Positions 37,361 through 59,706 of a stretch of 64,000 nt of DNA are shown here, one piece after another. The position numbers and the translations under genes are program-made. Numbering within the stretch: position 1 is the first letter of the stretch; the number at the start of each line of letters is the position of its first letter. Source of the stretch: Candidatus Omnitrophota bacterium (GTDB lineage Bacteria; Omnitrophota; Omnitrophia; JAHJGZ01; JAFGJY01); assembly GCA_016928875.1 (NCBI GenBank), contig JAFGJY010000019.1, positions 1,996 through 65,995 of the forward strand, written 5' to 3'. The notes under the pieces are model-generated. The model worked only from the letters and a program-made list of their open reading frames with translations. It was not told the origin of the DNA and ran no database searches.

Positions 37361-37436
37361 GTCTTTCCCGCGAAAGCGGGAATCAAGGTACTTTTATGCC
37401 TAGATCTTGGATAAGCCTTCGGCTTTCCGGGACGAC
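37361..37436. repeat. REP-like nested-hairpin intergenic repeat, family A
   Basis: gtctttcccgcgaaagcgggaa...ggataagccttcggctttccgggacgac; the same architecture occurs at about seven intergenic sites between 47 and 60 kb. Confidence 0.7.
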
Positions 37437-37477
37437 ACTAGGACCGGCCATGGCAATTACGACAATAAACAAGGAAC

Positions 37478-38581
37478 TTAGATACTGACCTTTTTGTATT
37501 TAAACTTCTCCGGAAACAGGCCCAACCTATCCGCTTCCTCGCAAAAATAGAACGGAGCCAAAAGGTCGCCATGGGAATAAAAGGCCTCTGCCCTGCATTT
37601 GCCGAGACAAAAGTTCTTGAACATACACTCCCCGCAGATGCCTTGCAGCTTGCTCGGGAGGTCACTGCGCAATGTTTTCAGTATTGCAGAATCGTGCCAT
37701 ATTTCTTTTAAAGAGCGTTCATGGATCGTGCCCAATAAAAGTTCAGGCGTACTTGCCCCGATACCGCAGATCGACATGCGGCCATCGGCCAAAACCCCGA
37801 GAATATTAAATATTCCACATCGCCCTTTATGCCTGCTTTTGGCCGGGAAGAAAGAGAACACGGGTGGTATGTCGAAGATCATGGCTACCTTTATCTGAGG
37901 CTGGACTTCTTCATCGATCACTTTTTTAATATCCAAATAATCCTTGACCGAAAGAACATCGTTTGAAGCGGCCAAACTTTTTCCGCGTTCAATATCGTTG
38001 ATACAATTGAGCTTCAGACTTGCCGCACCCAGCGACTGCGCCAGACGCGCCGTCTCTAAAATATATCGGACGTTAGGCCGGTAAAGAGACATGATCACCT
38101 GCGGCCTAAATCCCCGCTCGGCACATATTTTTACGCCGCGGCATGCTTTGTCGAATGAACCCGGCACCCCGCGCAACGCTTCGTGTATCTCCGCCGTAGG
38201 ACCGTCGATGCTTATCGAAATATGCGAAAGCTTCATCTCTTTAAAGAAATCTCCCGTCTCATCATCGATCAAAATGCCGTTGGTTTCCATAGTCATATAC
38301 AGGTTCTTTTCTTTGGCATACTTCATGAGCGGTCGTGTATGCAGACTTAAGAGCGGTTCTCCGCCGGTAAATTTTATGCTTTGCAGACCGAGCGGGATGG
38401 CTTGATCGATTATGGTGGTAAAGGTTTCGTACGGAGCTTCCTCCGGCGCTGTCGTTGCATCGAGATATTCAGGGGCTATCCAGCAATGTTTGCACGCACA
38501 ATTACAATACGACGTCATGTAAAAATATAACATGCCAAGTGGCGGAGTATTTGGTGCAAGGTCAAGGACACGTTCGTTCAT
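37478..38581 (-). CDS. radical SAM/SPASM domain peptide-maturase-like protein
   Basis: CNCACKHC, FTGGEPLL, SPASM CGECMFKNFCLGKC. Confidence 0.8.
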   Translation of the reverse strand: MNERVLDLAPNTPPLGMLYFYMTSYCNCACKHCWIAPEYLDATTAPEEAPYETFTTIIDQAIPLGLQSIKFTGGEPLLSLHTRPLMKYAKEKNLYMTMETNGILIDDETGDFFKEMKLSHISISIDGPTAEIHEALRGVPGSFDKACRGVKICAERGFRPQVIMSLYRPNVRYILETARLAQSLGAASLKLNCINDIERGKSLAASNDVLSVKDYLDIKKVIDEEVQPQIKVAMIFDIPPVFSFFPAKSRHKGRCGIFNILGVLADGRMSICGIGASTPELLLGTIHERSLKEIWHDSAILKTLRSDLPSKLQGICGECMFKNFCLGKCRAEAFYSHGDLLAPFYFCEEADRLGLFPEKFKYKKVSI

Positions 38582-39627
38582 AATGTGTTAAAGACCTCCT
38601 CTTTAATGCAATATAATTTTTTGTTCATGAACTTCCCTGGATTATGATATGGTTGACAGCGATGGCCAAGATAACAGAGCCGCAAATATTCACAGTTCAC
38701 ACACTCAGCTATCTCTTCGGCTTGTAGGTAAGCAGGTTCACGGAATTGATTCATCACCGGTGAATTGAGCCAAATATCTTTAAGCGAGGTTTCATAAAGG
38801 TCGCCGGCCACACAATCCCAGATTATCTCGCACGGGACGACTTTCCCGTCGGGACGGATGGCACACTGTTTCATCGCTGCCCCGCAGGGACTGACCATGA
38901 GCGGAAATTCAAATGTTGGCGGTGCCTCGCGTAATTTATCCAAGATCTCGACTTGCGTCATAACAGAACCCGTTATTGCATTTTTATATTTTTTGTTCAG
39001 TTCACGTACAACATCGAGCGATTGAAAGGTTTCTGCCGGCGTCATCAGTATTTGGTCGGAATAACAGGCGGCATTGCCGACATAGCACACATTGTTGAAA
39101 CGAATACTGTTAATGCCAAGCTCGCACGAAAGTTTATACATATTTTCAATATCGTGGTAATTGAATTTGGTCAGGATCGCAGACAGCGTAATGCCCCTCT
39201 TTATGCGTTTGATCTCTTCGATACCGCGGATCACCTTATCGAACGAACCCTGGCCGCGAAACGCGTCATGTACTTCGGCGCACGATCCGTCAATGCTGAT
39301 GCAATATGATCTGATCTTCGAACGTGCAAGCCAATCAGCTTCTTCACGATCGATCAATGTTCCGTTAGTGTTCACGCTTATCGTCAGCGGACATTTCCCC
39401 AGTTCCTCGGCAACAAAATGAAAATGTTCGGACATGAATGGCTCACCGCCGAATATCGAAACACTGAAGATCTTCATATCGCGTATCTGATGAATGATAT
39501 TGAGGAGCATTTCACGAGAAAATTCACGGCAGCCTGTCGTGCTGCTCGCCAGACAGTGCTTACAGGCTAAATTACACTTATTGGTTATACCGAAACTGAT
39601 ATTGTGCGGCGCGCTTAAAGTCTTCAT
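38578..39627 (-). CDS. radical SAM/SPASM domain peptide-maturase-like protein
   Basis: CNLACKHC, IFGGEPFM, SPASM CVNCEYLRLCYLGHRC; translationally coupled to 37478-38581. Confidence 0.8.
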   Translation of the reverse strand: MKTLSAPHNISFGITNKCNLACKHCLASSTTGCREFSREMLLNIIHQIRDMKIFSVSIFGGEPFMSEHFHFVAEELGKCPLTISVNTNGTLIDREEADWLARSKIRSYCISIDGSCAEVHDAFRGQGSFDKVIRGIEEIKRIKRGITLSAILTKFNYHDIENMYKLSCELGINSIRFNNVCYVGNAACYSDQILMTPAETFQSLDVVRELNKKYKNAITGSVMTQVEILDKLREAPPTFEFPLMVSPCGAAMKQCAIRPDGKVVPCEIIWDCVAGDLYETSLKDIWLNSPVMNQFREPAYLQAEEIAECVNCEYLRLCYLGHRCQPYHNPGKFMNKKLYCIKEEVFNTL

Positions 39628-39765
39628 ATGTAAATATTTCCATTCATGGGAGCGAGTGCGGTTTATATTTTAGATAATTTACGTTGGAAGAAACTACTAT
39701 ATTATAATATGATTGAACAATCAATAATTAATTTGCTAATCATTTATATTGAATAAGTTAGCGCT

Positions 39766-40959
39766 ATGGTACCATACCGCAAAGACCTGACCGAAAAACT
39801 TCTGATGTTCATCATGAAACATGATGCGCGCGATCTTATTTCTGCAGACGCCCTTGAGCATACTGACTGGAGCACATTCCTGCCGTTCGTGCGCTATCAC
39901 GGTTTACATAGCATGTTGTACCCGCTGCTCAAGCCCTTTCGTGAGCATATCCCCCATGTGCATTACGCTAGTTTTCATAAATCGTATTTTCAAGCGATCG
40001 CATTCAATGTGCGGGCAAAAGGATCATTTATGAAGATCAAAGATCTTTTTGACGGGAACGGTATCCAACTCGTACCGCTTAAAGGTATGGCGCTCATCTT
40101 CGATATTTATTCCTCGCATCCCTCGCGGCCAATGTGCGACCTTGATATCCTGATCACAGATAGTGATTACGAACGAGCGAAGGATCTTCTTAAGCAGATC
40201 GGATACATTAAAAATGTCTCTGATGATAGTGAACACTACTGGCGCAATGAACAGATGCACGTGAGCTTTGGTCCGAGAGACGGTACATTACCATTGTGTA
40301 TACTTGAGATGCACTGGCAGCTTGATTACACGCGCAAGTATCCCCTTTTGTCTGATCTCTGGCACCGCGTCCGGACTATCCCTGATGAAGGCGATGAAAT
40401 TGTGACCCTCTCGCCGGAAGATACACTGTTCTCGCTGGCACTACATCAGCGAAGGTTTGGTGCGCCACTCCAACTTAAGTATGCGTTTGATACGGCGTTG
40501 CTCTTTAAAAAGTATGAGAATAGTATTGATATTGATTATCTTATAAGTGAAGGCCGCAGGTCGCGGATACGATCGGCCCTGTATGCCCTCGTCAAGCAAT
40601 GTTCTTTTTTTTACTCTGATACGTCGGTTGAAAGATTACTAAAGGAATTACACATCTCAACGCTACGCAAGAACTGCCTGGACGCAATGATCAAAAAGAA
40701 CACATTTGAAATACAGAACAACACAAAGCAGCTGTTTGCCACCCTGCATCTGTTCCTCTTTGATAGCTGGAACGAACCATTATTCTACATGCTGAACATA
40801 CCCTATGTGCAGTTCTGCAAATATTACGGTCTTCTCCCCGGGCAGAAATATTCCCGCTTCTTGTACTCTCTCCGTTATTTTTACTATGGAATTGGGCTGA
40901 TACAATTAGGTGTGCAAAAGCTGTGTTTTTTACTACGGGGCGAAGCGGAGAAAAGATGA
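39766..40959 (+). CDS. nucleotidyltransferase-fold family protein (RiPP-cluster associated)
   Basis: PLKGMALIFDIY...CDLDILI matches the pol-beta NTase G[SG]x(n)DxD motif; the family is known next to HprK-like kinases in lasso-peptide clusters. Confidence 0.5.
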   Translation: MVPYRKDLTEKLLMFIMKHDARDLISADALEHTDWSTFLPFVRYHGLHSMLYPLLKPFREHIPHVHYASFHKSYFQAIAFNVRAKGSFMKIKDLFDGNGIQLVPLKGMALIFDIYSSHPSRPMCDLDILITDSDYERAKDLLKQIGYIKNVSDDSEHYWRNEQMHVSFGPRDGTLPLCILEMHWQLDYTRKYPLLSDLWHRVRTIPDEGDEIVTLSPEDTLFSLALHQRRFGAPLQLKYAFDTALLFKKYENSIDIDYLISEGRRSRIRSALYALVKQCSFFYSDTSVERLLKELHISTLRKNCLDAMIKKNTFEIQNNTKQLFATLHLFLFDSWNEPLFYMLNIPYVQFCKYYGLLPGQKYSRFLYSLRYFYYGIGLIQLGVQKLCFLLRGEAEKR

Positions 40960-40980
40960 ACGATCGTTCCCCTGCGTTCT

Positions 40981-41210
40981 TTACAAAGGAAATAGTAACG
41001 GGCCGGCCCCGCCGATACAATCATTAGGCGAAGGACCTGCCGTACAGCTACCAAAAGAGTATCCTACCTCACAAAACCCAGGATGCATGATCGAATTATT
41101 AGTGTTCCATGCGCCGCTCGCAGCATTACCGTGGCCACATGCTAAACATGAGCCGGATACCCTTGGTTATATTCAAAAACTTGTGGCGCAGTATAATGTT
41201 TTTTCGATAT
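40981..41210 (-). pseudogene. decayed precursor gene of the KK-Y-x-x-P-x-I family (start lost, 1-nt frameshift)
   Basis: The minus strand reads ..SKKHYTAPQVFEYNQGYPAHV* then, in the +1 frame, CGHGNAASGAWNTNNSIMHPGFCEVGYSFGSCTAGPSPNDCIGG..*; the DNA aligns to P3 (41228-41473) with ATG changed to TCG and a 1-nt deletion. Confidence 0.6.
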
Positions 41211-41227
41211 ACAATTTGCTGACTGTG

Positions 41228-41473
41228 TTATATCGCGGGCCATACTTGCGGCGAATCACCGGCGGTGCAATTATTAGGGCTACCGCCGGAAGTACAATTC
41301 CCGAACGAATACCCTATGGTGCAATAGCCGGGATAGGCGATTGAATTCCCAATACTGCATGTACCGCTCGCTGTACTCCCCAGGCCACAAGCATATGCAT
41401 CTGCCGGATGCCCTTGGTTATATTCTATGATCTGTGGTGGGCTATAATCTTTTTTATTTTTCATTATTTCCAA
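41228..41473 (-). CDS. putative RiPP precursor peptide P3 (KK-Y-x-x-P-x-I leader family)
   Basis: 81 aa MEIMKNKKDYSPPQIIEY..; core with 6 Cys, ..NCTAGDSPQVWPAI. Confidence 0.65.
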   Translation of the reverse strand: MEIMKNKKDYSPPQIIEYNQGHPADAYACGLGSTASGTCSIGNSIAYPGYCTIGYSFGNCTSGGSPNNCTAGDSPQVWPAI

Positions 41474-41550
41474 ATCTATGATTTTATACTTGTGTAAGAA
41501 TTATAACACATTAGGTATGATTCGCGGATATTTTTGCTGTTTAAAAGCCA

Positions 41551-42636
41551 TTACCGATCTCCATGATCAAGTTTGTTTACTAGATCGTTAAAGTCATCGC
41601 TGAGATCTGCTTTTAACGGGAATTTAAGTTCATAAGAAGGAATACCTGTAGCAATGTCGGCTAGCATATTAAAATAGAAGCTATTACTCTCACGGTCGGC
41701 ATTCATTGCCATAAGCTGTAATGGTTGATCGTAAAAAAGGAAACGACTGAGAGCATCACGCACATCGATGGGCGTTGCTTTTAAAACATCTGATTTCTCA
41801 AGGAAGAATATATATTTGATCGGAAATGAGCGTGATACCATGTCGGCGCTCATACTTCCCTGCTTGTACTCGTTCCACCATGGCGTTGCAACCGCAGAAA
41901 ATCCACCCTGTTCATCGGTCACAATGATACTGAGATCGTCACTCAGACCCCTGTACTTTTTAAGTGTTTTTACGATCGTTGATTTCCCATCGCCTCCCTT
42001 GCCTAAAAATACATACCCTGCCCCCTCACGAGCACACGAAGCCGCATGCATAATGACACCTTTTCGAGCGGCCATAAGTGATGTCCTGAATATCTCGTAC
42101 AGCGCTTGAACGCGAACTAAATGCTGTACTTTTATCTCAAGCGGGTCTGCTTCACCAATGATCAAGCGGAACATGAACCCGCACCGCTGTTGCTTGCAAA
42201 AAAAGCTCAACACTGCGCCGGACGAGACAACCGTCGCATCTTCAGTCTTTACTCCATCCAGAAGTACCTCAAAAAGCTGTGGGTGTGCGTCAAAATACGC
42301 CGCAAAAAAGAATTTAAACGTATCCTCGAGGCAATCTTTGGGATTATTGTACAGTAATACGATCTTCTTCTTAAGCAGCGTGATAAACTCGTGATACTTG
42401 GCTGGTAATCTTTCCCGTCGCGCTTCCACTAAATATTCTATGTAATAATTATAGTCGTTCTCTTCTTCTTGGACCACAGGATACTGTGCGAACGGTGTGT
42501 AGTCTAATATCATGCCTATTTCAGCCTTGCGGCTCACATCAAAATGGATGTTAACGCAGATGCCTGCTATACATACTCTCACCCTATCGAACTGCCGTTT
42601 TTTGAATAGACTATCATGCGATATCATACCATTCAT
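41551..42636 (-). CDS. HPr kinase-related P-loop kinase-like protein (paralog 3)
   Basis: VIMHAASCAREGAGYVFLGKGGDGKSTIV..LSDDLSIIV. Confidence 0.6.
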   Translation of the reverse strand: MNGMISHDSLFKKRQFDRVRVCIAGICVNIHFDVSRKAEIGMILDYTPFAQYPVVQEEENDYNYYIEYLVEARRERLPAKYHEFITLLKKKIVLLYNNPKDCLEDTFKFFFAAYFDAHPQLFEVLLDGVKTEDATVVSSGAVLSFFCKQQRCGFMFRLIIGEADPLEIKVQHLVRVQALYEIFRTSLMAARKGVIMHAASCAREGAGYVFLGKGGDGKSTIVKTLKKYRGLSDDLSIIVTDEQGGFSAVATPWWNEYKQGSMSADMVSRSFPIKYIFFLEKSDVLKATPIDVRDALSRFLFYDQPLQLMAMNADRESNSFYFNMLADIATGIPSYELKFPLKADLSDDFNDLVNKLDHGDR

Positions 42637-42838
42637 ATATGCTCAATCATGTCTTCCATGTTTTTTAAAAGTATTCTATATTGCAATGGACATTAAATTA
42701 TTTTTTATTAACGCCGGCATATCGTACATACTTACATTATGTGGTGAGAATTCCTGACCGGGAACAAAAGAAGGGATTCATAGGCTCATCTTGTGTGAAT
42801 TATCTGCAGCTTCTTGAATAATAACACTTAGAATAAAC

Positions 42839-43087
42839 TCAGTAAACGACGTTGCTACCAAAAGAACAATAGCCTGTTGCAGCAGTGCCGGCCTCGCACA
42901 GCGAAGGGGCGAATCCTGTGTTACATATGTTATTAGCAGCCGTACCAGTACCGCAAGCAGTGCTAGCAGCGCCACCGGAGTTGCACACCCCAATGACGCC
43001 TGATCCGGGATCACAGAGGCCAACACCTTCAGAATCAGAGGGGGGATTAAAAAATGCTATTTGTGGTTTTAAATATGGTCGCTTCAT
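42839..43087 (-). CDS. putative RiPP precursor peptide P4 (KK-Y-x-x-P-x-I leader family)
   Basis: 82 aa MKRPYLKPQIAFF..; core with 7 Cys in a G/S/T/A-rich context. Confidence 0.65.
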   Translation of the reverse strand: MKRPYLKPQIAFFNPPSDSEGVGLCDPGSGVIGVCNSGGAASTACGTGTAANNICNTGFAPSLCEAGTAATGYCSFGSNVVY

Positions 43088-43239
43088 ATATTCAATTCAT
43101 TGTATATTCCTAGAAATGCTTACTCAAATGTTTGTATTATAAATAGTTATAATAATATGTCAATGTATCTTTAACTACGCGCCCGCATTTTTTGAACGCC
43201 TGCTGATTACGGATTACGGGATCTGTTATCTGGGTATAT

Positions 43240-44346
43240 TTACCGTAAATTCCCCTTTATTTTCTCAAAGGCATCTGACAGGTCTTCGGTAATTGGGAAT
43301 TCAAGCTCGTAACACGCACATCGTCGTGTCAGCGTTCGTAAGAAATCAAAATAAAAAGCAATGCTCTTTTTATCTGTGGAAATTCCCTGAAAACGAAATG
43401 GCGAGTCATCATAAAGAAAGCGCCTCATCGCATCGCTTCGGGAAAGAGGGATCATTGCCAGTTTCGTTGCTTTTTTAAGAAAGAAAACATGGCGCAATAC
43501 GTTATCAATGCAAACTTCATGTGCCCTACCCTTACGGGCAACCACATCATCGTTATTCCACAACGATGGAGCGAGCATAAAATCTCCCTTATCCACAGGA
43601 TTTAATACTATGCTTACGTCATCGCTTAAGACATGATATCCCTTGAGACTGTTAATGATCGTCGACTTCCCTCCTCCTCCTCTGCCCATAAAGAGGTTCG
43701 CATCATTACTTTTAAGATTGGATGCACCATGGAGCATAATGCCTTTTCTCTCACCTGCAAGCACGGTTCTTGTGATCATATATAACATTTCCATGCCGGC
43801 TCGACGGTCATAATGGTCAGTCCCCTCATCGGCAGGTGGCACAACAGACAACACGATCCCCACTTTTGCACGTGGGCAGTAGAATACTATCATGATCGAC
43901 GATACGCACATATAGCAATCGCCGTCCAGCAGGATCTTTTTGATCACGTTGAAAATATGGGGGTATTGATCAAAATACGAGGCAAGGTACTGACGCATTA
44001 GTGAATCTCCCTTGATGCATCTATTTCGGTCAAAGTACACAATATTCTTATCGAGGTACGTTAAGATCGTACGATAGTCCGAGTTCACATTGCTAACGTC
44101 AGATCGACGCAGAAAACACAGGTAATAGTCCGCACCGCTTACTACATATCTTGTAGGATCGCTCTGTGTATTCGTACATGCTTCTTTAATAAACGACTGC
44201 TCAACGAAACCATTGTCGTTAGGATCGAATCGTAAGGTTGCATGGATGTACCCCATCTTAAAATACAAGCTAGATGTGAATGTGCTATTGAGAAGCTCTT
44301 TATTCAAACTAGTATCCTTACCGTTAATGATATTTGCATTCATCAT
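43240..44346 (-). CDS. HPr kinase-related P-loop kinase-like protein (paralog 4)
   Basis: GIMLHGASNLKSNDANLFMGRGGGGKSTII..LSDDVSIVL. Confidence 0.6.
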   Translation of the reverse strand: MMNANIINGKDTSLNKELLNSTFTSSLYFKMGYIHATLRFDPNDNGFVEQSFIKEACTNTQSDPTRYVVSGADYYLCFLRRSDVSNVNSDYRTILTYLDKNIVYFDRNRCIKGDSLMRQYLASYFDQYPHIFNVIKKILLDGDCYMCVSSIMIVFYCPRAKVGIVLSVVPPADEGTDHYDRRAGMEMLYMITRTVLAGERKGIMLHGASNLKSNDANLFMGRGGGGKSTIINSLKGYHVLSDDVSIVLNPVDKGDFMLAPSLWNNDDVVARKGRAHEVCIDNVLRHVFFLKKATKLAMIPLSRSDAMRRFLYDDSPFRFQGISTDKKSIAFYFDFLRTLTRRCACYELEFPITEDLSDAFEKIKGNLR

Positions 44347-44457
44347 GTTATTTTCTGCAAAAGGACATAACGAATACTATCAGTAAAGATGAGTTTTGCC
44401 CCGATCTTATTTAATATGAATTCAAATGTCCTTATGGTATAAAATGAAATATGCGTT

Positions 44458-45166: not shown

Positions 45167-45229
45167 TTATCTTATTATAATCGATTTAAGAACATAGATA
45201 AATGAAAATAAATAATAATGCAAAGCTGC

Positions 45230-45487: not shown

Positions 45488-45529
45488 TCATAATACGCTA
45501 TTAACTCTGCGTTGTCAAACCAAAATCCT

Positions 45530-46570: not shown

Positions 46571-46648
46571 TGGCGGGAGCGACGGGACTTGAACCCGCAA
46601 CACCCAGATCGACAGTCTGGTACTCTAACCAAATTGAGCTACGCCCCC
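46571..46648 (-). tRNA. tRNA-Asp (anticodon GTC), CCA encoded
   Basis: The reverse complement GGGGGCGTAGCTCAATTTGGTTAGAGTACCAGACTGTCGATCTGGGTGTTGCGGGTTCAAGTCCCGTCGCTCCCGCCA folds as a cloverleaf with a 7-bp acceptor stem (one G-U), anticodon loop CTGTCGA and TPsiC GTTCAAG. Confidence 0.85.
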
Positions 46649-46665
46649 ATATATCAATGAATACC

Positions 46666-46740
46666 TGGGCGTTTAAGGATTCGAACCTTAGACCCCTTCC
46701 TTGTAAGGGAAGTGCTCTAAACCAGCTGAGCTAAACGCCC
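46666..46740 (-). tRNA. tRNA-Val (anticodon TAC)
   Basis: The reverse complement GGGCGTTTAGCTCAGCTGGTTTAGAGCACTTCCCTTACAAGGAAGGGGTCTAAGGTTCGAATCCTTAAACGCCCA has acceptor GGGCGTT/AACGCCC and anticodon loop CTTACAA; CCA is not encoded. Confidence 0.85.
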
Positions 46741-46820: not shown

Positions 46821-46950
46821 ATGGCGAAGAACCTTAGACCCCTTCCTTGTAAGCCGAGTAGGTCCGCCGTTTTTATTCGCGGAGGAAGTGCTCTGTACAA
46901 ACCTCAGCCAAAGGCTGATCCGCCTCTGGCGGAAGCTGAGCTAAACGCCC
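46821..46950 (-). pseudogene. disrupted second tRNA-Val copy carrying two short insertions
   Basis: gaaccttagaccccttccttgtaag[ccgagtaggtccgccgtttttattcgcggag]gaagtgctct[gtacaaacctcagccaaaggctgatccgcctctggcggaag]ctgagctaaacgcccg; the insertions fall in the anticodon-stem and D-loop regions; insertion 1 recurs at 50613-50645. Confidence 0.7.
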
Positions 46951-47060
46951 GTCAATGCTTAAAATATGTCAAAAGTCCAAGCGAAAGAAGGTGTATTATA
47001 AGCAAGCCCTCTTCATTTGTCAAATAGTAACGCCCAATTTTTTGTTTTACCCACAGCATA

Positions 47061-47196
47061 TCGTCCCGGCCGTTCTTTGGTGTCGTCCCCGCCATTCTTT
47101 GCTGTCGTCCCCGCGCAAGCGGGGATCGAGGCACCGAGATCCCGGATAAGCCTCCCGCCACAAGACGAGGCGGGCAGGTCGGCTTTCCGGGACGAC
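47061..47196. repeat. REP-like nested-hairpin repeat, family A (with internal duplication and an extra hairpin insert)
   Basis: gtcgtccccgcgcaagcggggatc...cccggataagcc[tcccgccacaagacgaggcgggcagg]tcggctttccgggacgac. Confidence 0.75.
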
Positions 47197-49087: not shown

Positions 49088-49366
49088 CGTGTGTTCCTGG
49101 TGCGCGTACTGCGTATTGCGTCAAATCAAAACTATTTACTCCCCCACCCCGTCGTCATTGCGGGCATAAGGGTTAAAAAGTGTTGCTGCTTGATTTTGTA
49201 ATTAAATGATCGTTAAGGCGTTAGAACTAAAATTTAGGCTCATTATCAAAGTGTTTTAATAATGGGGCTTAAATCTGTTTCTAACTCACTGCATTCACGA
49301 CCACTAACATTTTTACTTAGCAACATTTTTTAACCAATATGCACATTGCGAGGAAATAAACTCTAT

Positions 49367-49458
49367 GTCGTCCCCGCGAAAGCGGGGACCTAGTCCTTTA
49401 GATCCGGGATAAGCCTCCCGCCACAAGACGAGGCGGGCAGGTCGGCTTTCCGGGACGA
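49367..49458. repeat. REP-like nested-hairpin repeat, family A
   Basis: gtcgtccccgcgaaagcggggacc...gggataagcctcccgccacaagacgaggcgggcaggtcggctttccgggacgac. Confidence 0.75.
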
Positions 49459-49578
49459 CCTTATAATATAAGCAGCACTGCTCGATATTGTACTGAGATC
49501 CTTCACCCGCCTCCTGCGGGTTCAGGATGCCGTGATTTCCTATGAGTTTCGTCGCTCTAAGCAACGCAACTCATGAAA

Positions 49579-50568: not shown

Positions 50569-50600
50569 GCCGCTCCTCCTTTATGATATAAGCTGCCGTC

Positions 50601-50737
50601 TCCCCTTTTAAGGCCGAGTAGGTCCGCCGTTTTTATTGGCGGAGGAGTGGCCGAAGGCCGAGGGGTTTTGCGTACAATGTACGTGACCTTAAAACCCCCC
50701 TGCGACTCCGTCGCTTCCCCCCTTGCAAGGGGGGACG
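50601..50737. repeat. multi-hairpin intergenic repeat, family B
   Basis: ...ggggttttgcgtacaatgtacgtgaccttaaaacccccctgcgactccgtcgcttccccccttgcaaggggggac; a homologous copy lies at 58083-58230; it also contains the ccgagtaggtccgccgtttttattggcggagg hairpin. Confidence 0.7.
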
Positions 50738-50781
50738 TTAATATTTTTTTATTGCGAATAGGTTTCATACACCAGTGTCTA

Positions 50782-51681: not shown

Positions 51682-51700
51682 ATTGGTACCGATGACCGAT

Positions 51701-51758
51701 GGGGACAGCGCCCAGTGTTTAAAAAAGCTTTTTTAAACACTGGGCGCTGTCCCCTTTT
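51701..51758. terminator. perfect 54-bp palindromic hairpin (bidirectional terminator-like)
   Basis: ggggacagcgcccagtgtttaaaaaagcttttttaaacactgggcgctgtcccc followed by tttt; sits between convergent/tandem gene ends. Confidence 0.6.
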
Positions 51759-51765
51759 GAACATA

Positions 51766-52137
51766 TTATTTTTTCATGGCCAGATCGACCATGGCCAGCA
51801 GTTCGTTATTATCGAATGGTTTTGCAAGCAAATACTGTCCTGCCATCTTGTGGCCGGTCAGCTTCGCTTCTTCGTCATTAACAACGCCGGTAAGAAAAAT
51901 GATCGGAATATTTTTGGTCGCTGCATCGCCTTCAAGCACCGAGGCCATTTTACCGCCGCTTACGCCCGGCATCATCAAATCTGAAATGATCAGGTCCGGT
52001 TTTTCGCTCTTTACTTTCTCGGCGCCCTCTTTACCGTCAGCAGCGAGTATCACCTGATAACCACTCGACGTGAGCACATCATTAAGTGCATCCCGGATCG
52101 CTTCTTCATCATCGACAACCACTATTTTCTTCGCCAT
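51766..52137 (-). CDS. single-domain response regulator (CheY-like receiver)
   Basis: VVDDEEAIR...DLIISDLMMPGVSG...K receiver motifs. Confidence 0.8.
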   Translation of the reverse strand: MAKKIVVVDDEEAIRDALNDVLTSSGYQVILAADGKEGAEKVKSEKPDLIISDLMMPGVSGGKMASVLEGDAATKNIPIIFLTGVVNDEEAKLTGHKMAGQYLLAKPFDNNELLAMVDLAMKK

Positions 52138-52229
52138 GCTCTCCTCCTTTGTTCTCTCATGTTCGTTCTATGGTTCCCAACAATAACATCTTCACCTCTG
52201 GTGTCAGGCACGGTGCCTGAGACCGATCG

Positions 52230-52964: not shown

Positions 52965-53458
52965 TCCGTCTGGCTTCTGGTTCTCGTATCAGGATACAAC
53001 TTCAAGAGAAATCGTTCCGCGCCGTGGACAACGGTCACTCTATTCGGCGTTATGCTCTCAACCCTGCAGCCCATGATCTCGTCGCCTACCCGCAGCATCT
53101 GATCGTTGATGATCGCATTCGGCACGCCCTGCTCAAAGAACACCCCCATAAGATCGAGCTTGGAGATATCAAATTGCGGGGCCGCTTCCGCTTTCTTGAT
53201 CGGCTCGAACGGACTTATCATTTCTTCGTACTGCGGAACTCCGGCATTGTGCTTAAGTTGTGTCTTTAATTTGCCAAGATCAGGCAGTGGTGCACCGTCT
53301 GTTTTCTGTGGCACCATTACCGCCGACTGATTCGCTTGGCCAACATGCGGTGCCGTTACCGGAAGCGTCTTTTTACCATCCTTTGAAAGCGTCATAACGA
53401 GCCATACCACGATCACGATGACCATGCAGATACCTATATTTCTCTCACGTTTTGTCAT
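52961..53458 (-). CDS. PilP-like pilus assembly lipoprotein/inner-membrane protein
   Basis: N-terminal TM; C-terminal LRVGDEIMGCRVESITPNRVTVV beta-domain block; follows pilMNO. Confidence 0.45.
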   Translation of the reverse strand: MTKRERNIGICMVIVIVVWLVMTLSKDGKKTLPVTAPHVGQANQSAVMVPQKTDGAPLPDLGKLKTQLKHNAGVPQYEEMISPFEPIKKAEAAPQFDISKLDLMGVFFEQGVPNAIINDQMLRVGDEIMGCRVESITPNRVTVVHGAERFLLKLYPDTRTRSQTE

Positions 53459-54048
53459 TGCCCCGTCCCCCTGCCCGCCGCGTCCGCTTCAACGGTCTGG
53501 GCCTTGAACAAGGTATACACCGTCAACTGAACATCCAATAACGTGCCTCCGGCATTGATCGTGAGCCCTTCAACGCCTGCTATGCTCGGAGAAGCCTCGA
53601 TCGCGTCGAGAAATTTAAAAAGGCTCGCATACTGTGTCTTGAAATTCATGCTCATCGGCAACACCTCGTGGTCGCCTTGCGCGCGTTCAGCCATCGGTCG
53701 TACGGTTGAAAGCTCGACTCTGTAATTGTCCGCTATCTTGATTATTTCCTGGGTCAGGAGCGCCACGTTCTTCTCCTGGATGACCTTGGTGCTCATCGCG
53801 CTGACAGCAGACTGAAAAACGACCATACTTTCGGCGATCTCTGCCATTTCCTCCTCAAGATCGGCCTGGATGCGTTTAAGCTGCTCGCGGTCGATTGAAT
53901 TGACCGCGGCTTTTTCCGCCGTGATCTCGTCCTTGAGCGCGCTCATCGCCGCCATGTGCACGCGCACATCGATCGCGATCGTCGTAATGACCACGATCAT
54001 GATCGCGAACCATTGCCAGCGTAATAATCGTCTAAGATAAATGTCCAT
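53455..54048 (-). CDS. pilO: PilO-like type IV pilus assembly protein
   Basis: 197 aa, N-terminal TM plus coiled coil; in pilM-N-O order. Confidence 0.55.
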   Translation of the reverse strand: MDIYLRRLLRWQWFAIMIVVITTIAIDVRVHMAAMSALKDEITAEKAAVNSIDREQLKRIQADLEEEMAEIAESMVVFQSAVSAMSTKVIQEKNVALLTQEIIKIADNYRVELSTVRPMAERAQGDHEVLPMSMNFKTQYASLFKFLDAIEASPSIAGVEGLTINAGGTLLDVQLTVYTLFKAQTVEADAAGRGTGQ

Positions 54049-54085
54049 GCATCCCTTCCAGTCATCATTGAATATAAAATATCAT

Positions 54086-54143
54086 GTCGTCCCGGCCGTA
54101 GAGCCGGGACCCCGGTTCCTAGATCCCCGCTTCCGCGGGGACG
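54086..54143. repeat. REP-like nested-hairpin repeat, family A variant
   Basis: gtcgtcccggccgtagagccgggaccccggttcctagatccccgcttccgcggggacgac. Confidence 0.7.
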
Positions 54144-54231
54144 ACACCGAAGAACTTCCGGAACGACATCTTTTCTTCAATATTCCTTCTGCTCACCACC
54201 TGCGAGGTCGGGAATACTGTGTTCTTTCCTA

Positions 54232-54777
54232 CTATTCAAACGTGCAGGTCAAACTGAACGTGATCGTTGTCCCATCCGCTGCGGTATTCGACTGCATCGA
54301 CGTCAGGTCGACCGTATTAAAATACGGTATTTTTTTGATCTCGAGCAAGAACTCGCTCACCAGCTGGGCATCATACGCCTTGCCTTTCATCTCCAGCGTC
54401 TTTTTTTGGCTGCTCACCGTAACGCTGTTAAGCCACACCTTATTGCGCGCGCTATCGCCGATCAATTTCATCATCGCTTTGTAATGCACACGTTGCGCAG
54501 CGATCTCAAGCAGTGCTTGGTTTTCAGAGACGAAGGCATTTCTCTCATTGCGCAGTAATGTCACTTCACTGCGCACTTTATCAAGTTCTGGCATAGCACG
54601 CGAGAGCTTGATCGCGGTCAGTTCATTCTTAAGTCCCTTGACACCGTCCGCGAGCCATATGTGAACCGGCACAATGCACACGATCACAATGACTGCGCTG
54701 ACGATCATCGTCTTCTTGAGCGCTGCCATGCGCATCTGGTGCTGGTATGCTTCCGGTAAAAGGTTTATTTGTCGCAT
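54232..54777 (-). CDS. pilN: PilN-like type IV pilus assembly protein
   Basis: MRQINLLPE N-terminal motif plus a TM. Confidence 0.65.
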   Translation of the reverse strand: MRQINLLPEAYQHQMRMAALKKTMIVSAVIVIVCIVPVHIWLADGVKGLKNELTAIKLSRAMPELDKVRSEVTLLRNERNAFVSENQALLEIAAQRVHYKAMMKLIGDSARNKVWLNSVTVSSQKKTLEMKGKAYDAQLVSEFLLEIKKIPYFNTVDLTSMQSNTAADGTTITFSLTCTFE

Positions 54778-54860
54778 CTCATCCTTTTGTTATCTTATGT
54801 GTCTATATCTCTCGTCGTCATTGCAGTGAGTCCCAAGTACCCTGTAGCCCTAAACACCAT

Positions 54861-54932
54861 GTCATCCCCGCGAAAGCGGGGATCCAGTTCATGTGTCCAG
54901 ATCCCGGATAAGCCTTCGGCTTTCCGGGACGA
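54861..54932. repeat. REP-like nested-hairpin repeat, family A
   Basis: gtcatccccgcgaaagcggggatccagttcatgtgtccagatcccggataagccttcggctttccgggacgac. Confidence 0.75.
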
Positions 54933-54992
54933 CCTTAAAACCATCAGTAGCGACACGACCCGTACCCACCTGCATAGGTTTGGCGTTAATTT

Positions 54993-56144
54993 TTACAACA
55001 ATGCTGCGCCAAAGGCAGCTGCCACGGTCGGCGCCATCGTATGCATTGCTTCCCGATCGCGCTTTTTCATCTTGACCGAATGGTCTTTAAAAATATCGCC
55101 TCGTTCTACAATTACGCCCAATTTCTCAGCTAAAAACGAATCGATCCCGTTCATCAGAGAACCACCGCCGAAAAGATATGCCTTCTCGATCCGCTCGACC
55201 AGTATCTCTGCTTCACAATACGCGAACGAACGGTTTATTTCAGCTGCAAGCTGAGTTAACGCAGTCTCAATATGGGTTATGAGCGCGCTCTCGCCGTAGT
55301 TCGATCCTGCCCCGCTCGGCCTGAGCGGTTGTTCTTTCTTGATCTGCTCTGCCTCCAGAAAACCGATCTTAAGCCCGTCCTTTATCGCAGAGGTAAAGGT
55401 ATTGCCGGCAATATCGATCGAACGCAGGAACAGCAATTTTCCGTCCTTGACGACCGCCATCACCGTCCGTGAGGCCCCCATATCGATGAGTGCGACCATC
55501 TTGTCCTTCTCGACCGTATGGGTCTTTAAGAACGCTTTGATAAGCGCAAAGGCCGTAATATCCACTTTGGTCGGGACCATCTTAAGCTCGCGCAAAAGCG
55601 CGATATATTTGTTGATCGCATCATTGTGCGCAACGACAAGCACCACATCCTTATTCTCCGCCCCGTGTCCTACGGGCCCGCCCAGGTCCTGGAAATCGAC
55701 CACTGCTTGCTCGAGCGGAAAACTGATGAACTTCTCTGCCCGCCACCTGATGGCCTTTAAAAGTTCAAGCTCTGAAAGGCACGGAACGTTGATCTGTTGC
55801 GATATCACCGCGGTGTCCGATATCGTAAGCGCAATACGTTTGTCCTTGATCTTGCATTCCTTGATCAAGGTCTTGAGTTCTTTCTCGATAAGCACGGTAT
55901 CCTGCCACGAATTCCCGCTGTCAAGCGACGGTGCCAGTTCTTTATATCCGACCTTTATCACGCTCACGGAATTCGGCATCTCCTTAAGCGCGGCAATTTT
56001 GACCGAATGTGAGCCGATATCGATCCCGATCTGTGCGGCTTCTTTGTACATCGGCCTGAGCGGATTGCACACATCGAGATACGATGCGATCTTGGTCGCT
56101 TCAAGTACCTCGTTCACCTTGTTCCACTGTTCGCGTATGTCCAT
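54993..56144 (-). CDS. pilM: PilM type IV pilus assembly ATPase-fold protein
   Basis: IGIDIGSHSVKIAAL actin-like N-terminus; 383 aa. Confidence 0.8.
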   Translation of the reverse strand: MDIREQWNKVNEVLEATKIASYLDVCNPLRPMYKEAAQIGIDIGSHSVKIAALKEMPNSVSVIKVGYKELAPSLDSGNSWQDTVLIEKELKTLIKECKIKDKRIALTISDTAVISQQINVPCLSELELLKAIRWRAEKFISFPLEQAVVDFQDLGGPVGHGAENKDVVLVVAHNDAINKYIALLRELKMVPTKVDITAFALIKAFLKTHTVEKDKMVALIDMGASRTVMAVVKDGKLLFLRSIDIAGNTFTSAIKDGLKIGFLEAEQIKKEQPLRPSGAGSNYGESALITHIETALTQLAAEINRSFAYCEAEILVERIEKAYLFGGGSLMNGIDSFLAEKLGVIVERGDIFKDHSVKMKKRDREAMHTMAPTVAAAFGAALL

Positions 56145-56187
56145 GTGGTATTAGCCTCTGTTTGCATTAAATCAAAACTCAAAACAT

Positions 56188-56290
56188 GTCGTCCCCGCGC
56201 CTGTCCTCGCATCTTCGTTTTCGAAGAAAACGGCAGAGGAAAAGCGGGGACCTAGATCCCGGCTCTGCGCTTCGCTTCGACCGGGACGAC
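56188..56290. repeat. REP-like nested-hairpin repeat, family A (long-loop variant)
   Basis: gtcgtccccgcgcctgtcctcgcatcttcgttttcgaagaaaacggcagaggaaaagcggggacc...cccggctctgcgcttcgcttcgaccgggacgac. Confidence 0.7.
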
Positions 56291-56333
56291 AGCAAGAAAA
56301 TATTATCAAAATAACGGTGAGTAATTATCTAAC

Positions 56334-58034
56334 TTAATTACCTTCCCCTATCGGCAGGCGTATCGTGAATGTCGTACCTTTTCCGACCTGGCTGTCTAAT
56401 AAGATCTGCCCGCCGTGATTGGCCACGATGTCCGAACTCACCGACAACCCAAGCCCGGTTCCTTTGCCCTCGCCCTTGGTCGTAAAGAGCGCCTGAAAGA
56501 TCTTTTGTTTAATATCGTCCGGTATCCCGTGGCCGGTATCCGTAAACAGCGTATCGACCCATTTCCCGTCCGTTAGCTTTGTCGTGATCGTGAGACTGCC
56601 GCCATGCTCGAGCATGGAATCCTTGGCATTGATGATCATATTGAGGAACACCTGCTGGATCTGGTTCGGATCGACCAAGACCTTAGGAATGTCCTCGCCC
56701 AAGTGCTTAATGACCTCGATCGCGTTCTTGCTCATGTGATAGCGCGCGACCTCAAGTGCCGCCTCCGCGATATCATTGACACTGTTTGGCGCGGTCTCCG
56801 CCTTTTTCTTGCGCGCCAAATGCAGGAGGTCCTTGGCGATCTTATGGCAACGCTGGCCTTCTTTGTTGATCACACCCGCGTATTTGATGTAATTTTTTAT
56901 ATTTTCCTCGGCAAGTTTGCCTGCCTCGAGGTTCTTGCCTATTAATTCAGAATAACTGATCACACTGGTGAGCGGGTTATTGATCTCATGCACGATCCCG
57001 CCCGCAAGCGCACCGAGGGCTGCGATCTTCTCTGCCTCAACTAACGCTGCTTGTCTGTTCTTGAGCTCTTCGTACGCCCGCTTAAGATCATCGAATAGTT
57101 GCGCGTTCGCTATTGCCAGCCCCACCTCACGCGAAACAACACTTAAGAGCTCCAGGTCCTCCTGCGTAAACGCCTTTGTAGCGCTCTTTGTATCTACGTT
57201 CAGGATCCCCAGGATCTCGTCTTTATGCTTGATCGGCACGCACATCGCGGAGCGGATCTGATGGAAGATGATACTTTCCGAGACCTGCATGTTCTTTTTG
57301 TCTTGCGCATCCGAAATGAGCAACGCCTCGCCGCGCTTTACTACCTGATCGATGATCGTGCGTGAGATCGCGATCTCGGCTGAGCTCTTTGATCCTGACT
57401 TGGTCTTATGGACCACCTGTGGCAGCGGCTCCTTCGTCTCTTTGTCAAGAAGCAGAATATAACCGCGGTCCGCTTTTGTGATGTCCAGTACCAGCGCGAG
57501 GATCTTATCGAGCACGGTCGGCATATCTTCGACCGTACCGATACTGTAATTTACCTTGTAGAGAATATTAAGGCGCTCATACGCGCTCGTGAGTTTTGCG
57601 GGATCGGCCTTCACCTCTTCGGCTGTGACCGGTTTTACCTGATCGGGCTTAACCGAAAATTGAACGGTAAGGCCGTCAAGTATCTGACCGGCTTCGCCGA
57701 TCGTGACCCGCGATATATTCTCTGCGCCCTCGGCCCGTTCAAGCGCTGAATCGGACATGAAGGTCAGACTGATCTTGCCCAGCCGTATCTCGTCGCCGAA
57801 CTTCAGGACTTTATGCGCGACCTTATCGTTATTGACGAATGTCCCGTTCGTGCTGCCAAGGTCTTCGATCATGTACCCGTCCGAGGTCCATGAAATGCGC
57901 GCGTGCGTACGCGAGACCTGCTGGTCTGGCACGACGATATTGTTCGACCCATCGCGGCCTATCGAGACTTCGGCTGCGCTTATCCTCAGTTCTTCGCCCG
58001 CTCGCTCTCCTGTATTGACTATCAACTTTGGCAT
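56334..58034 (-). CDS. sensor histidine kinase with N-terminal FHA and central GAF domains
   Basis: FHA (GRDGSNNIVV..SRTHARI..GSTNGTFVN), GAF, HisKA HEINNPLTSV, HATPase GTGLGLSVS. Confidence 0.8.
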   Translation of the reverse strand: MPKLIVNTGERAGEELRISAAEVSIGRDGSNNIVVPDQQVSRTHARISWTSDGYMIEDLGSTNGTFVNNDKVAHKVLKFGDEIRLGKISLTFMSDSALERAEGAENISRVTIGEAGQILDGLTVQFSVKPDQVKPVTAEEVKADPAKLTSAYERLNILYKVNYSIGTVEDMPTVLDKILALVLDITKADRGYILLLDKETKEPLPQVVHKTKSGSKSSAEIAISRTIIDQVVKRGEALLISDAQDKKNMQVSESIIFHQIRSAMCVPIKHKDEILGILNVDTKSATKAFTQEDLELLSVVSREVGLAIANAQLFDDLKRAYEELKNRQAALVEAEKIAALGALAGGIVHEINNPLTSVISYSELIGKNLEAGKLAEENIKNYIKYAGVINKEGQRCHKIAKDLLHLARKKKAETAPNSVNDIAEAALEVARYHMSKNAIEVIKHLGEDIPKVLVDPNQIQQVFLNMIINAKDSMLEHGGSLTITTKLTDGKWVDTLFTDTGHGIPDDIKQKIFQALFTTKGEGKGTGLGLSVSSDIVANHGGQILLDSQVGKGTTFTIRLPIGEGN

Positions 58035-58082
58035 CGTGTACTCCTTTGTGAAAATGTATCAAAACCCAAAACAAAATAATTC

Positions 58083-58230
58083 TCCCCTTGAGGGGAGTGG
58101 CTCCGCAGGAGCCGACCTTGTCCCGTTGGATTCCACCGCCTGTGGCGGGGTCCCTTTGCGGGAGGGGTGTTGCGTACCTATTCTCAACATCCCCCTGCGA
58201 CTTCGTCGCTTCCCCCTTCAAAGGGGGACT
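58083..58230. repeat. multi-hairpin intergenic repeat, family B
   Basis: ccccttgaggggag, ggctccgcaggagcc and ccgcctgtggcgg hairpins, then gggtgttgcgtacc...ccccctgcgacttcgtcgcttcccccttcaaagggggac, homologous to 50601-50737. Confidence 0.7.
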
Positions 58231-58286
58231 CCCTCTACTACAAAACCAATTATTTGTTTAAAAAAACGGATAATAAAACATCTACG

Positions 58287-59606
58287 TCAGCCCAGCCGCT
58301 CCTGGGCCTCTGCCCTGAGCCGTCCGGTATCATCATACTTAACTACGCTTTGCCATGCCTTGCGTGCATCGGCCGTCTTGCCTTTCTTCTCCAGCGCGAG
58401 CGCCAGCTCTCGATAGTATGGCGCATGATCAGGACGCAGCATGATCGCTTTTTTGAGCGCGTATATCGCCTGATCGACCTCACCGATACTCATAAGTTTC
58501 TCTGCCTGCGAAACCTTCTCCTCAGCCTGCTCGAGGACCTTAAGATGACGCTCAACTTCTCCCATGAGATCTTTTTCGCCCAAGATCATCGATTTTGCCT
58601 TCTCAATGTACTCCTCACTGTACAATCTGATCTCATCTTTGTATTTCGGCACAAAGTACACTGCAAGCGCCCCTATCACCGCGATCACAATGAGCCCCAT
58701 CGGAAACCTCTTGGTGCCAGGCACGGTGTCAGGCACGGTGCCAGGCACCACTCTGGTCGCACCCTGCATGATCACCGTTGCGGATTCCTTGTTCTCAGGC
58801 GCCTTGGCAACGAATGCTTTAATGTCACTTATAAGATCGTCCGCGCGCTGATACCGCTCACCGAGATTCTTTGCCATTGCCTTTAACGTAATACGCTCTA
58901 CTTCAGGCGGGATTCCCTTTACGAATGTACTCATCGGCGGCGGCGCCTCTTGTTTATGTTTCTGGAAGATCGCCTGAAATGACTCGCCCTGGAACGGCGT
59001 CCGTCCGGTAAGCATTTCATACATGGTTACCCCAAGCGCGTAAATGTCAGTACGCGAATCAACCTGATCCCCATCGATCTGTTCCGGGGACATGTACTCC
59101 GGTGTCCCCATTGATGACCCCGTTGCAGTTAATTTGGTCACACCCGGCAATTTTACAAGACCGAAATCCATGACCTTAACCACGCCTTGGTTCGTGATCA
59201 TGATGTTCGCCGGCTTGATATCACGGTGATACATGAGTTCTTTATGCGCATAGGCCAGCACATCTGCAACCTGCACAATGATCGATAATGTTTGGTCAAC
59301 TGAGAAACGGCCCTTGTTCTTTATAAGGGTCTTCAGATTATCACCCTCGACATATTCCATGGCGATGTAATGGCTCCCGCCGCTTGCGCCGACCTCATAG
59401 ACCTCGATGATGTTCGGATGTTTAAGCCGCTGCACTGCTGCAGCCTCACGATTGAAACGCCCGACCATGCTTGGATCGACCATCGTCTGCAAGAGCACCT
59501 TGATCGCCGCGACCTTACCTGCCGCATTGACCCCTTTGTAGACGACCGCCATGCCGCCTTTGCCGATCTCCCGTTGAATTTTAAATTTACCGATCTCTTT
59601 TTCCAT
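58287..59606 (-). CDS. Hanks-type Ser/Thr protein kinase with TM and C-terminal TPR
   Basis: GKGGMAVVYKG, HRDIKPANI, DFGL, GTPEYMSPE; a TM near aa 300; TPR-like tail. Confidence 0.85.
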   Translation of the reverse strand: MEKEIGKFKIQREIGKGGMAVVYKGVNAAGKVAAIKVLLQTMVDPSMVGRFNREAAAVQRLKHPNIIEVYEVGASGGSHYIAMEYVEGDNLKTLIKNKGRFSVDQTLSIIVQVADVLAYAHKELMYHRDIKPANIMITNQGVVKVMDFGLVKLPGVTKLTATGSSMGTPEYMSPEQIDGDQVDSRTDIYALGVTMYEMLTGRTPFQGESFQAIFQKHKQEAPPPMSTFVKGIPPEVERITLKAMAKNLGERYQRADDLISDIKAFVAKAPENKESATVIMQGATRVVPGTVPDTVPGTKRFPMGLIVIAVIGALAVYFVPKYKDEIRLYSEEYIEKAKSMILGEKDLMGEVERHLKVLEQAEEKVSQAEKLMSIGEVDQAIYALKKAIMLRPDHAPYYRELALALEKKGKTADARKAWQSVVKYDDTGRLRAEAQERLG

Positions 59607-59636
59607 ATTGTTCTCCTAATGGCTTCTCCTCTTTAT

Positions 59637-59706
59637 GTCATCCCCGCGGACGCGGGGATCTCAGTTCTTAGATCCCGGCTCTTCGCTATGCTTCGGCCGG
59701 GACGAC
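59637..59706. repeat. REP-like nested-hairpin repeat, family A
   Basis: gtcatccccgcggacgcggggatctcagttcttagatcccggctcttcgctatgcttcggccgggacgac. Confidence 0.75.

Follow-up and report, generated by a model that had tools for sequence, protein, structure and literature searches.

Probable CGTC-tagged palindromic repeat dimers in the gaps of a pilus-Bat gene string from an Omnitrophota bacterium

The DNA described here (the window) is a 64-kb stretch of contig JAFGJY010000019.1 of a Candidatus Omnitrophota bacterium (assembly GCA_016928875.1). A string of pilus and Bat genes in this window is populated by two families of small hairpin elements, family A (seven copies, A1 to A7) and family B (two copies, B1 and B2). 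The family A elements are, in all probability, head-to-head dimers of CGTC/TGTC-tagged palindromic repeats, that is, of the CGTC class of repetitive extragenic palindromic (REP) sequences, to which the dRS3/NTS repeats of Neisseria and the Ssn-related motif (SRM) also correspond. They are likely to be non-autonomous and dependent on the nuclease Ssn. The elements have colonised the gaps of the otherwise compact pilMNO-moxR-bat string in this Omnitrophota lineage, and the family A elements grow as additional small hairpins become nested in the loops of hairpins already present.

The CGTC-1 repeat has been defined as a CGTC or TGTC (or CCTC) tag, unpaired and positioned directly 5' of an 8-bp stem, which opens with an A-T and a T-A pair, encloses a 4-nt loop and is followed by a CCA tail (Di Nocera, De Gregorio & Rocco 2013, PMC3733652). 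CGTC-1 repeats are found mainly as head-to-head dimers, often heterodimers, between co-directional or convergent open reading frames (ORFs). CGTC-1 is identical to dRS3 of Neisseria and RPE-6 of Rickettsia, RPE-4 being CGTC-4, and no dedicated transposase is known for CGTC repeats (PMC3733652). Chenal et al. (2025, PMC11893778) give the NTS consensus as CGTCATTCCCGCGMAVGCGGGAATCYRG and name the wider class SRM.

In each family A arm an unpaired GTC tag is combined with a GC-rich stem of 8 bp and with a loop and a tail that are both short. In seven of seven copies two such hairpins are inverted relative to each other, with both GTC tags facing outward, according to the layout [T-GTC-(A/G)TCCCCGC-loop-GCGGGGA(T/C)-C] - 10-20 nt - AGATC-[CCGG... 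...CCGGGA-CGAC], in which the loop of the right arm is a TTC triloop. All 14 arms of the seven dimers start with (T/C)GTC, each on its own strand. With shuffled sequence as the control for both motif counts and folding, the tag motif GTCRTCCCSGC (one mismatch allowed) is found 20 times in the window versus 2.35 +/- 1.4 times in the shuffles, and the pattern of left arm plus spacer four times versus none. Folded as single-stranded DNA (ssDNA), all nine A and B copies are more stable than their own shuffles, with z scores between -2.4 and -5.5 and hairpin energies of -15 to -29 kcal/mol. All nine copies listed in a preliminary description of this DNA (seven A and two B) were located, and its view of them as REP-like, multi-copy intergenic elements with nested hairpins is supported. 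That they occupy almost every intergenic gap is correct for the interval between 47 and 60 kb, where 8 of the 11 gaps contain an A or B element, but does not extend to the rest of the window, where a covariance model of the arm (model R1) detects no further arms.

The left arm of A5, TGTCATCCCCGCGAAAGCGGGGATCCAG, has all the features of CGTC-1: a TGTC tag, an 8-bp stem opening with AT, a 4-nt loop, a CCA tail, a head-to-head dimeric arrangement and a location in a gap between co-directional ORFs. The left arms of A5 and A7 can both be written ATCCCCGC-GAAA/GGAC-GCGGGGAT, the A5 tail being CCA, and in the remaining arms of the window either the first pair varies (GT..AC, TT..AT) or the loops are longer. 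The A1 arm is identical to the Neisseria NTS consensus at 25 of 28 positions, and this consensus can be lined up with the window arms TGTCATCCCCGCGAAAGCGGGGATCCAG and TGTCTTTCCCGCGAAAGCGGGAATCAAG. The SRM search pattern of PMC11893778 (HGTCWY N0-2 YYVSBRH N0-5 WNVSBRG N0-2 RNCYNB) matches the window once when applied strictly (54860-54887, + strand, the left arm of A5), compared to 0.18 matches in shuffles, and three times, compared to 0.26, when its fifth base W is freed to N.

Family A shares with CGTC-1 the unpaired CGTC/TGTC tag, the 8-bp ATCCCCGC stem, the 4-nt loop, the CCA-type tail, the head-to-head dimers, the co-directional gaps and the lack of an associated transposase (PMC3733652). 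It differs in that its host phylum, Omnitrophota, is outside the five phyla of the 2013 survey, many arms open with GT or TT rather than AT, the right arm has a long form with a bulge (CCCGGATAAGCC-loop-GGCTTTCCGGG), and the loops hold nested secondary hairpins. Clustering around particular genes is a property shared with dRS3/NTS and SRM, as is the repeat-ssn-repeat layout found in other Omnitrophota contigs. Unlike the Neisseria repeats, those of the window are mostly heterodimers with expanded loops and have no ssn gene in the same 64 kb, and cleavage is documented for the Neisseria and Wolbachia homologs only (PMC11893778); the transformation-modulating role shown for dRS3/NTS in Neisseria cannot be assumed to apply here. 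The Rickettsia repeats RPE-4 and RPE-6 belong to the same superfamily and also insert in unusual places, even inside genes, whereas in the window the copies are confined to intergenic DNA, with a broken copy of a tRNA-Val gene as the single 'genic' case.

The stems are conserved by compensatory changes, as the preliminary description had noted. The left-arm stem of the window exists in four mutually compensated forms: ATCCCCGC/GCGGGGAT, GTCCCCGC/GCGGGGAC, TTTCCCGC/GCGGGAAT and GTCCCGGC/GCCGGGAC. A gap-free alignment of 27 distinct 25-nt arms was assembled from 17 right arms found in a genome scan and picked by their tags only, one 25-nt form seen in L117 that is also the consensus of the L092 arms, five window arms, and four arms from Omnitrophota ssn loci. 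Across these arms, which come from many genomes, six of the eight stem pairs have double-sided changes, and 98.6% of the cells are paired versus 91.0% in shuffles, none of 500 shuffles reaching the observed values; in register-shifted controls only 30-51% are paired. The covariation fits a hairpin that is read as ssDNA at least as well as it fits an RNA structure. Because Ssn recognises ssDNA hairpins and not RNA, covariation by itself is no argument for an RNA function.

Family A is not restricted to the window. A scan for the left arm plus spacer, with one genome per species, gives matches in at least 120 genome stretches from Alpha- and Gammaproteobacteria, Patescibacteria (WWE3, Paceibacterota and one single-cell genome), Omnitrophota, Bdellovibrionota, Planctomycetia, Verrucomicrobiia, Acidobacteriota and other taxa. 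Nearly all of the matches listed contain the same dimer, GTCATCCCCGC-loop-GCGGGGATC ... AGATC-stem-loop-stem-GATGAC. A scan of metagenomes with the lineage-specific right arm returned 12 contigs (L123-L134) with a GC content of 64-71%, all of them unrelated and none a close relative of the window. The long right arm, GATCCCGGATAAGCC(GC)-loop-(GC)GGCTTTCCGGGACGAC, is kept in these high-GC contigs, including its bulged A. As this variant is conserved in unrelated high-GC contigs, it is a cross-phylum form and not an invention of Omnitrophota.

The repeat class has a dedicated nuclease. According to PMC11893778, SsnA is a small single-domain GIY-YIG protein with affinity for the hairpin, next to which it cuts on the upstream side, acting on ssDNA only and in a single orientation, with no binding of RNA or double-stranded DNA. 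Strand-specific binding and cleavage of the hairpin are reported there for the Neisseria and Wolbachia homologs, ssn genes are typically flanked by the repeats, and in N. meningitidis the Ssn system lowers the integration of transforming DNA that bears the repeat (PMC11893778).

Five of the 120 pattern loci listed have a gene for a protein of 92-105 residues within 0.5 kb of the hairpin, and all five proteins are single-domain GIY-YIG proteins (PF01541). A profile built from them finds two homologs labelled Omnitrophota, P0167 and P0237, which fall into no specific NCBIfam family. On the contigs that encode them (L137-L141) a 96-residue PF01541 gene has SRM hairpins on both sides. The upstream one is TGTCATTCCCGCGCAAGCGGGAATCCAG, and the downstream one, on the other strand, is TGTCATCCCCGCGAAAGCGGGGATCCAT, identical to the A5 arm at 27 of 28 positions. 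The repeat-ssn-repeat unit is thus present in this phylum with essentially the hairpin of the window. In the window itself, no ssn gene was found by phmmer in all six-frame ORFs of at least 40 residues at E values up to 10. At two of these loci (L137 444-2468 and L141 6001-8126) the SRM-flanked Ssn-like gene directly precedes the gene of a large serine recombinase, which suggests that the nuclease may ride on an integrative element. The same loci adjoin miaB-like (UPF0004/radical SAM) genes, and on L141 the Ssn-like gene comes after helix-turn-helix, primase-polymerase-like and TIR genes.

By combining these observations with the mechanism described in PMC11893778, a possible mode of action of family A can be outlined. 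In single-stranded DNA each arm would fold into a hairpin. A cognate Ssn, a GIY-YIG protein of about 96 residues, would bind the hairpin and cut just 5' of its stem, on one strand only. Since only one strand is cut and the dimer is head-to-head, each strand would present one cleavable hairpin. By analogy with REP sequences and their REP-associated tyrosine transposase (RAYT), the elements may spread as non-autonomous selfish DNA that relies on an Ssn gene elsewhere in the genome. Their main effect on the cell would then probably be exerted at the level of ssDNA, as cleavage of incoming or replicating single strands and as break points for recombination, and not through RNA signals shaped for that purpose.

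The elements can also be recognised as additions by comparison with related genomes. The decorated string consists of co-directional minus-strand genes for pseudopilins, a Ser/Thr kinase, an FHA-GAF-histidine kinase, PilM, PilN, PilO, a metallophosphatase, a response regulator, MoxR, a DUF58 protein and a BatD-like protein. A relative whose MoxR is 88% identical (L121, GCA_042576765.1) has the same gene order with gaps of 9-48 nt, compared to 154-491 nt in the window, and contains no GTC-tagged hairpin at all; its gap orthologous to that of A7 is 9 nt long. Two further relatives (L136 and L135, with MoxR identities of 82% and 77%) have no elements either, and a fourth (L122, 89%) has three related elements, all at other sites. 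With three relatives element-free and the fourth occupied at other sites, the elements are insertion-polymorphic additions to a conserved operon and not part of its ancestral design.

Several points weigh against the assignment of family A to an Ssn-dependent CGTC class. One arm alone passes the strict SRM pattern; most of the others differ from it by GTCG for GTCA, by their tails or by expanded loops. Divergence of the intergenic DNA from that of L121 is too great for exact insertion junctions to be defined, and binning errors in metagenome-assembled genomes could inflate the apparent taxonomic breadth. The Ssn-like label of P0167 and P0237 is based on the Pfam GIY-YIG domain and the flanking-repeat layout. 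The cognate nuclease is a predicted one, because the 64 kb read from this genome hold no ssn gene. We know of no transposition mechanism for CGTC elements, and the source paper, too, offers the role of Ssn as driver of repeat spread as a hypothesis (PMC11893778). Family A is an Omnitrophota addition to a known superfamily; the mechanism of its spread is what we infer.

The elements could alternatively be host-selected RNA elements, such as stabilisers, processing sites or attenuators, in a polycistronic pil-bat transcript, their character as DNA repeats being secondary. Every copy is placed between co-directional genes, with 30-280 nt separating it from the following start codon, and forms strong hairpins with GNRA-type loops on the + strand; one end of B2 resembles a terminator on the mRNA strand, and action at the RNA level has often been argued for REP sequences. 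The seven family A copies also have one polarity: all are in + orientation between co-directional minus-strand genes. The two-sided p of about 0.016 for this polarity is confounded, as all these genes are on one strand and in DNA of one GC-skew sign. A broader polarity argument that counted the elements of L122 (nine of nine alike relative to the genes) was dropped: for the L122 element at 11579, the stem type and the loop-module type give opposite orientations. Against an RNA role, close relatives run the same operon element-free, the GNRA loops are on the non-coding strand, and the mRNA (minus) strand of the family A hairpins lacks a U-tract, no copy being called a terminator there. Rfam gives no matches in the window other than tRNAs and chance miRNA hits, and the terminator role proposed earlier thus finds no support for family A. 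The conservation of one 25-nt sequence across phyla points to a sequence-specific protein partner rather than to a local RNA function. We consider such an RNA role of the elements improbable.

Still more doubtful is that family A represents miniature inverted-repeat transposable elements (MITEs), i.e. deletion derivatives of insertion sequences (IS) of the DDE or IS110 type moved in trans through their terminal inverted repeats (TIRs), or else landing pads of IS110 elements. The ends are indeed inverted repeats (ATGTCGTCCC..GGGACGACAT), and dRS3 is described in PMC11893778 as the target of a phage recombinase in Neisseria. Within 141-1549, L122 moreover carries an IS110 transposase gene (DEDD_Tnp_IS110 and Transposase_20), the upstream non-coding end of which abuts an A-type element at 1391-1549. 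IS110-family elements habitually target REP-like sites, and the L122 arrangement fits this habit; such adjacency is expected if REP-like sites are targets and not derivatives. A target-site duplication is seen at none of the seven copies and no IS with family A termini was seen. What look like TIRs are simply the tag and stem of each of two hairpins that are independent of one another; such hairpins also exist as singletons and flank ssn genes.

It is equally hard to regard family A as REPINs, a type of REP doublet that a RAYT (TnpA-REP, a Y1 transposase of the IS200/IS605-like type) generates and mobilises. The preliminary description implied such an origin, which is most unlikely: the layout of two inverted hairpins bearing an unpaired tetranucleotide at the 5' side is shared with REPINs and bacterial interspersed mosaic elements (BIMEs; PMC6006769), and the copies are intergenic, multi-copy and insertion-polymorphic, but the tag is CGTC/TGTC and not GTAG/GTGG, CGTC repeats never flank RAYT genes in the published survey (PMC3733652), the genes beside these hairpins elsewhere encode GIY-YIG proteins, and Pfam finds no Y1_Tnp/RAYT, IS110 or DDE transposase in 50 of the 65 predicted window ORFs, a set that includes almost all ORFs outside the pilus-Bat string. 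Most ORFs of the string were judged through the precomputed Pfam families of their L121 orthologues, among which there is no transposase.

The nesting of small hairpins in loops is seen at several places in the window. The extra CCCGCC..GGCGGG hairpin of the preliminary description is present, as a 25-nt insert in the right-arm TTC loop, in A2 (47154-47178) and A3 (49417-49441) and is missing from A1 and A5. In A6 the GAAA loop of the left arm is enlarged by a module of about 40 nt (56200-56239), which recurs inside the arms of two L122 elements. A 30-nt module, CCGAGTAGGTCCGCCGTTTTTATTSGCGGA (CCGAGTAGGTCCGCC..GGCGGA), occurs in two copies that are 97% identical, one at 46854-46883, at the anticodon loop/stem junction of a partial tRNA-Val copy, and one at 50613-50643, in the loop of the first hairpin of B1. 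Both sites read TAAG^GGA(A)GTG, a similarity that may stem from target specificity or from common descent. Another hairpin insert, of about 34 nt, is found within 46895-46933, in the D loop of this broken tRNA-Val copy. All five CCGCC-loop-GGCGG mini-hairpins of the window are located inside A or B elements or in this tRNA-Val copy. The insertion of REP sequences into pre-existing palindromes has been reported before (PMC3733652).

The four kinds of nested insert (the 25-nt hairpin shared by A2 and A3, the A6 module of about 40 nt, the 30-nt module and the D-loop insert), every one of them located in a loop, allow the speculation, to which we give rather little credence, that SRM-type and companion hairpins are actively mobile in this lineage and that the single-stranded loops of DNA hairpins already in place are their specific integration sites. 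Survivorship, insertions being tolerated in loops, is the alternative to genuine loop targeting. If targeting of ssDNA hairpin loops did take place, presumably catalysed by Ssn, it would be the first sequence-level clue to the transposition of the 'orphan' CGTC/SRM repeats.

The individual copies, all given on the + strand, vary around the common layout. A1 (37360-37436; fold z -3.3; 39.1 bits with the covariance model) has the left arm TGTC-TTTCCCGC-GAAA-GCGGGAAT-C with an NTS-like TCCCGC stem and the right arm GATCTTGGATAAGCC-TTC-GGCTTTCCGGGACGAC, and is located between an S24/S26-peptidase-like gene and a radical-SAM/SPASM gene. A2 (47103-47196; z -4.1) and A3 (49366-49459) have the same architecture, including the nested hairpin, and are 90% identical across 94 nt. 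A4 (54085-54146; z -3.4), in the gap between PilN and PilO, has the left arm GTCGTCCCGGC-CGTAGA-GCCGGGAC and, on the - strand, the right arm TGTCGTCCCCGCGGAAGCGGGGATCTAG; a partial third arm runs on to 54167. The canonical copy A5 (54860-54933; z -5.5; 45.3 bits) occupies the gap between PilM and PilN. The enlarged copy A6 (56187-56290) has the right-arm loop CTCTGCGCTTCGCTTCGA, and in A7 (59636-59706) the left arm is TGTCATCCCCGC-GGAC-GCGGGGAT and the right arm CCCGGC..GCCGGGACGAC.

Family B is best described as a lineage-restricted mosaic of small hairpin modules, apparently in no named family so far, that exists in two copies. B1 (50600-50738, + strand; z -4.3) is composed of five or six small hairpins upstream of moxR and ends in the 3' module CCCCCCTGCGACTCCGTCGCTTCCCCCCTTGCAAGGGGGGAC. 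B2 (58082-58230, + strand; z -4.2), between the Ser/Thr kinase gene and the FHA-GAF-histidine kinase gene, is likewise made up of five or six small hairpins and has a CTCCCC..GGGGAG 5' hairpin and the same 3' module. The two copies have in common the 5' hairpin and about 55 nt of the 3' module, and their middles are unlike; the identity is 76% overall and rises to about 90% in the final 40 nt. There is a resemblance between the family B 5' hairpin and the anticodon arm of tRNA-Val. On the - strand, the end of the element reads CGTC/AGTC directly followed by a C-rich hairpin, as a tag would, but matches neither the SRM pattern nor model R1. The 22-nt core of family B, CTGCGACTYCGTCGCTTCCCCC, is not found in the 134 fetched loci or in viral contigs, no genome or metagenome collection having been scanned for it. 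As intergenic mosaics of several types of small hairpin repeat, family B and the composite gaps are similar to the Neisseria intergenic mosaic elements (NIMEs) and to the BIMEs of E. coli, a likeness of architecture alone, with two copies of family B known.

One copy of family A coincides with a change in gene order. In L121, L122 and L135 the batA/batB VWA genes come next after the gene for the BatD-like protein. In the window these genes are missing, and the BatD-like gene is followed by A2, 2.5 tandem 22-nt copies of A2's own head (47061-47114), the broken tRNA-Val copy (46829-46953, + strand), tRNA-Val and tRNA-Asp. A2 and its tandem heads are situated exactly at the end of synteny with the three relatives. 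The tandem unit, TCGTCCCCGCCATTCTTTGCTG (90% match), copies the tag and half-stem of A2. These heads may be the footprint of repeated cleavage and repair, or of slippage. The earlier suggestion that the elements promoted rearrangements thus gains circumstantial support from the position of A2; an element at a synteny break is suggestive, and does not by itself amount to evidence of causation.

The tRNA-Asp and tRNA-Val genes at 46571-46740 (- strand) have diverged copies, 73-85% identical, at 29069-29270. The two sets bracket a 17.5-kb island which holds A1 and encodes PqqD, two radical-SAM/SPASM enzymes, S24/S26-like peptidases, ABC exporters and an NTP_transf_5 protein, and which looks like an integrated gene island of the type that makes ribosomally synthesized and post-translationally modified peptides (RiPPs). 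A 110-nt stretch at 10333-10442 is 91% identical to 33022-33131, the 3' end of an ABC exporter gene (33025-34791); this gene-fragment copy adjoins a low-GC (38-41%) cluster at 10-28 kb that is rich in radical-SAM and U32-peptidase genes. The gap that separates the response-regulator gene from the next one contains a perfect inverted repeat of 20 bp, GGGGACAGCGCCCAGTGTTT..AAACACTGGGCGCTGTCCCC (51702-51753), flanked by A/T runs on either side. This repeat has the appearance of a bidirectional terminator, has no relation to families A and B, and accounts for weak chance Rfam miRNA hits at this position. The gap upstream of the response-regulator gene has a short palindrome, GGTGTCAGGCACGGTGCCTGAGACC (52200-52224), which is similar to a tandem GGCACGGTG(C/T)CAG repeat within the coding sequence of the Ser/Thr kinase (58713-58749), where it encodes GTVPDTVPGT.

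The finding has consequences for annotation, as GC-rich hairpins of this kind inflate gaps, create spurious ORFs and here mark a synteny break beside a broken tRNA gene. It also brings Omnitrophota into the CGTC/SRM class, a phylum absent from the 2013 survey (PMC3733652) and from the main text of the 2025 Ssn paper (PMC11893778). This class has long been an orphan among repeats, its partner nuclease having been first reported in 2025 (PMC11893778). The pilus-Bat string offers a clean natural experiment, one operon being element-free in three relatives, saturated in the window and differently populated in a fourth relative, and the insertions nested in loops hint at a target preference of these elements.

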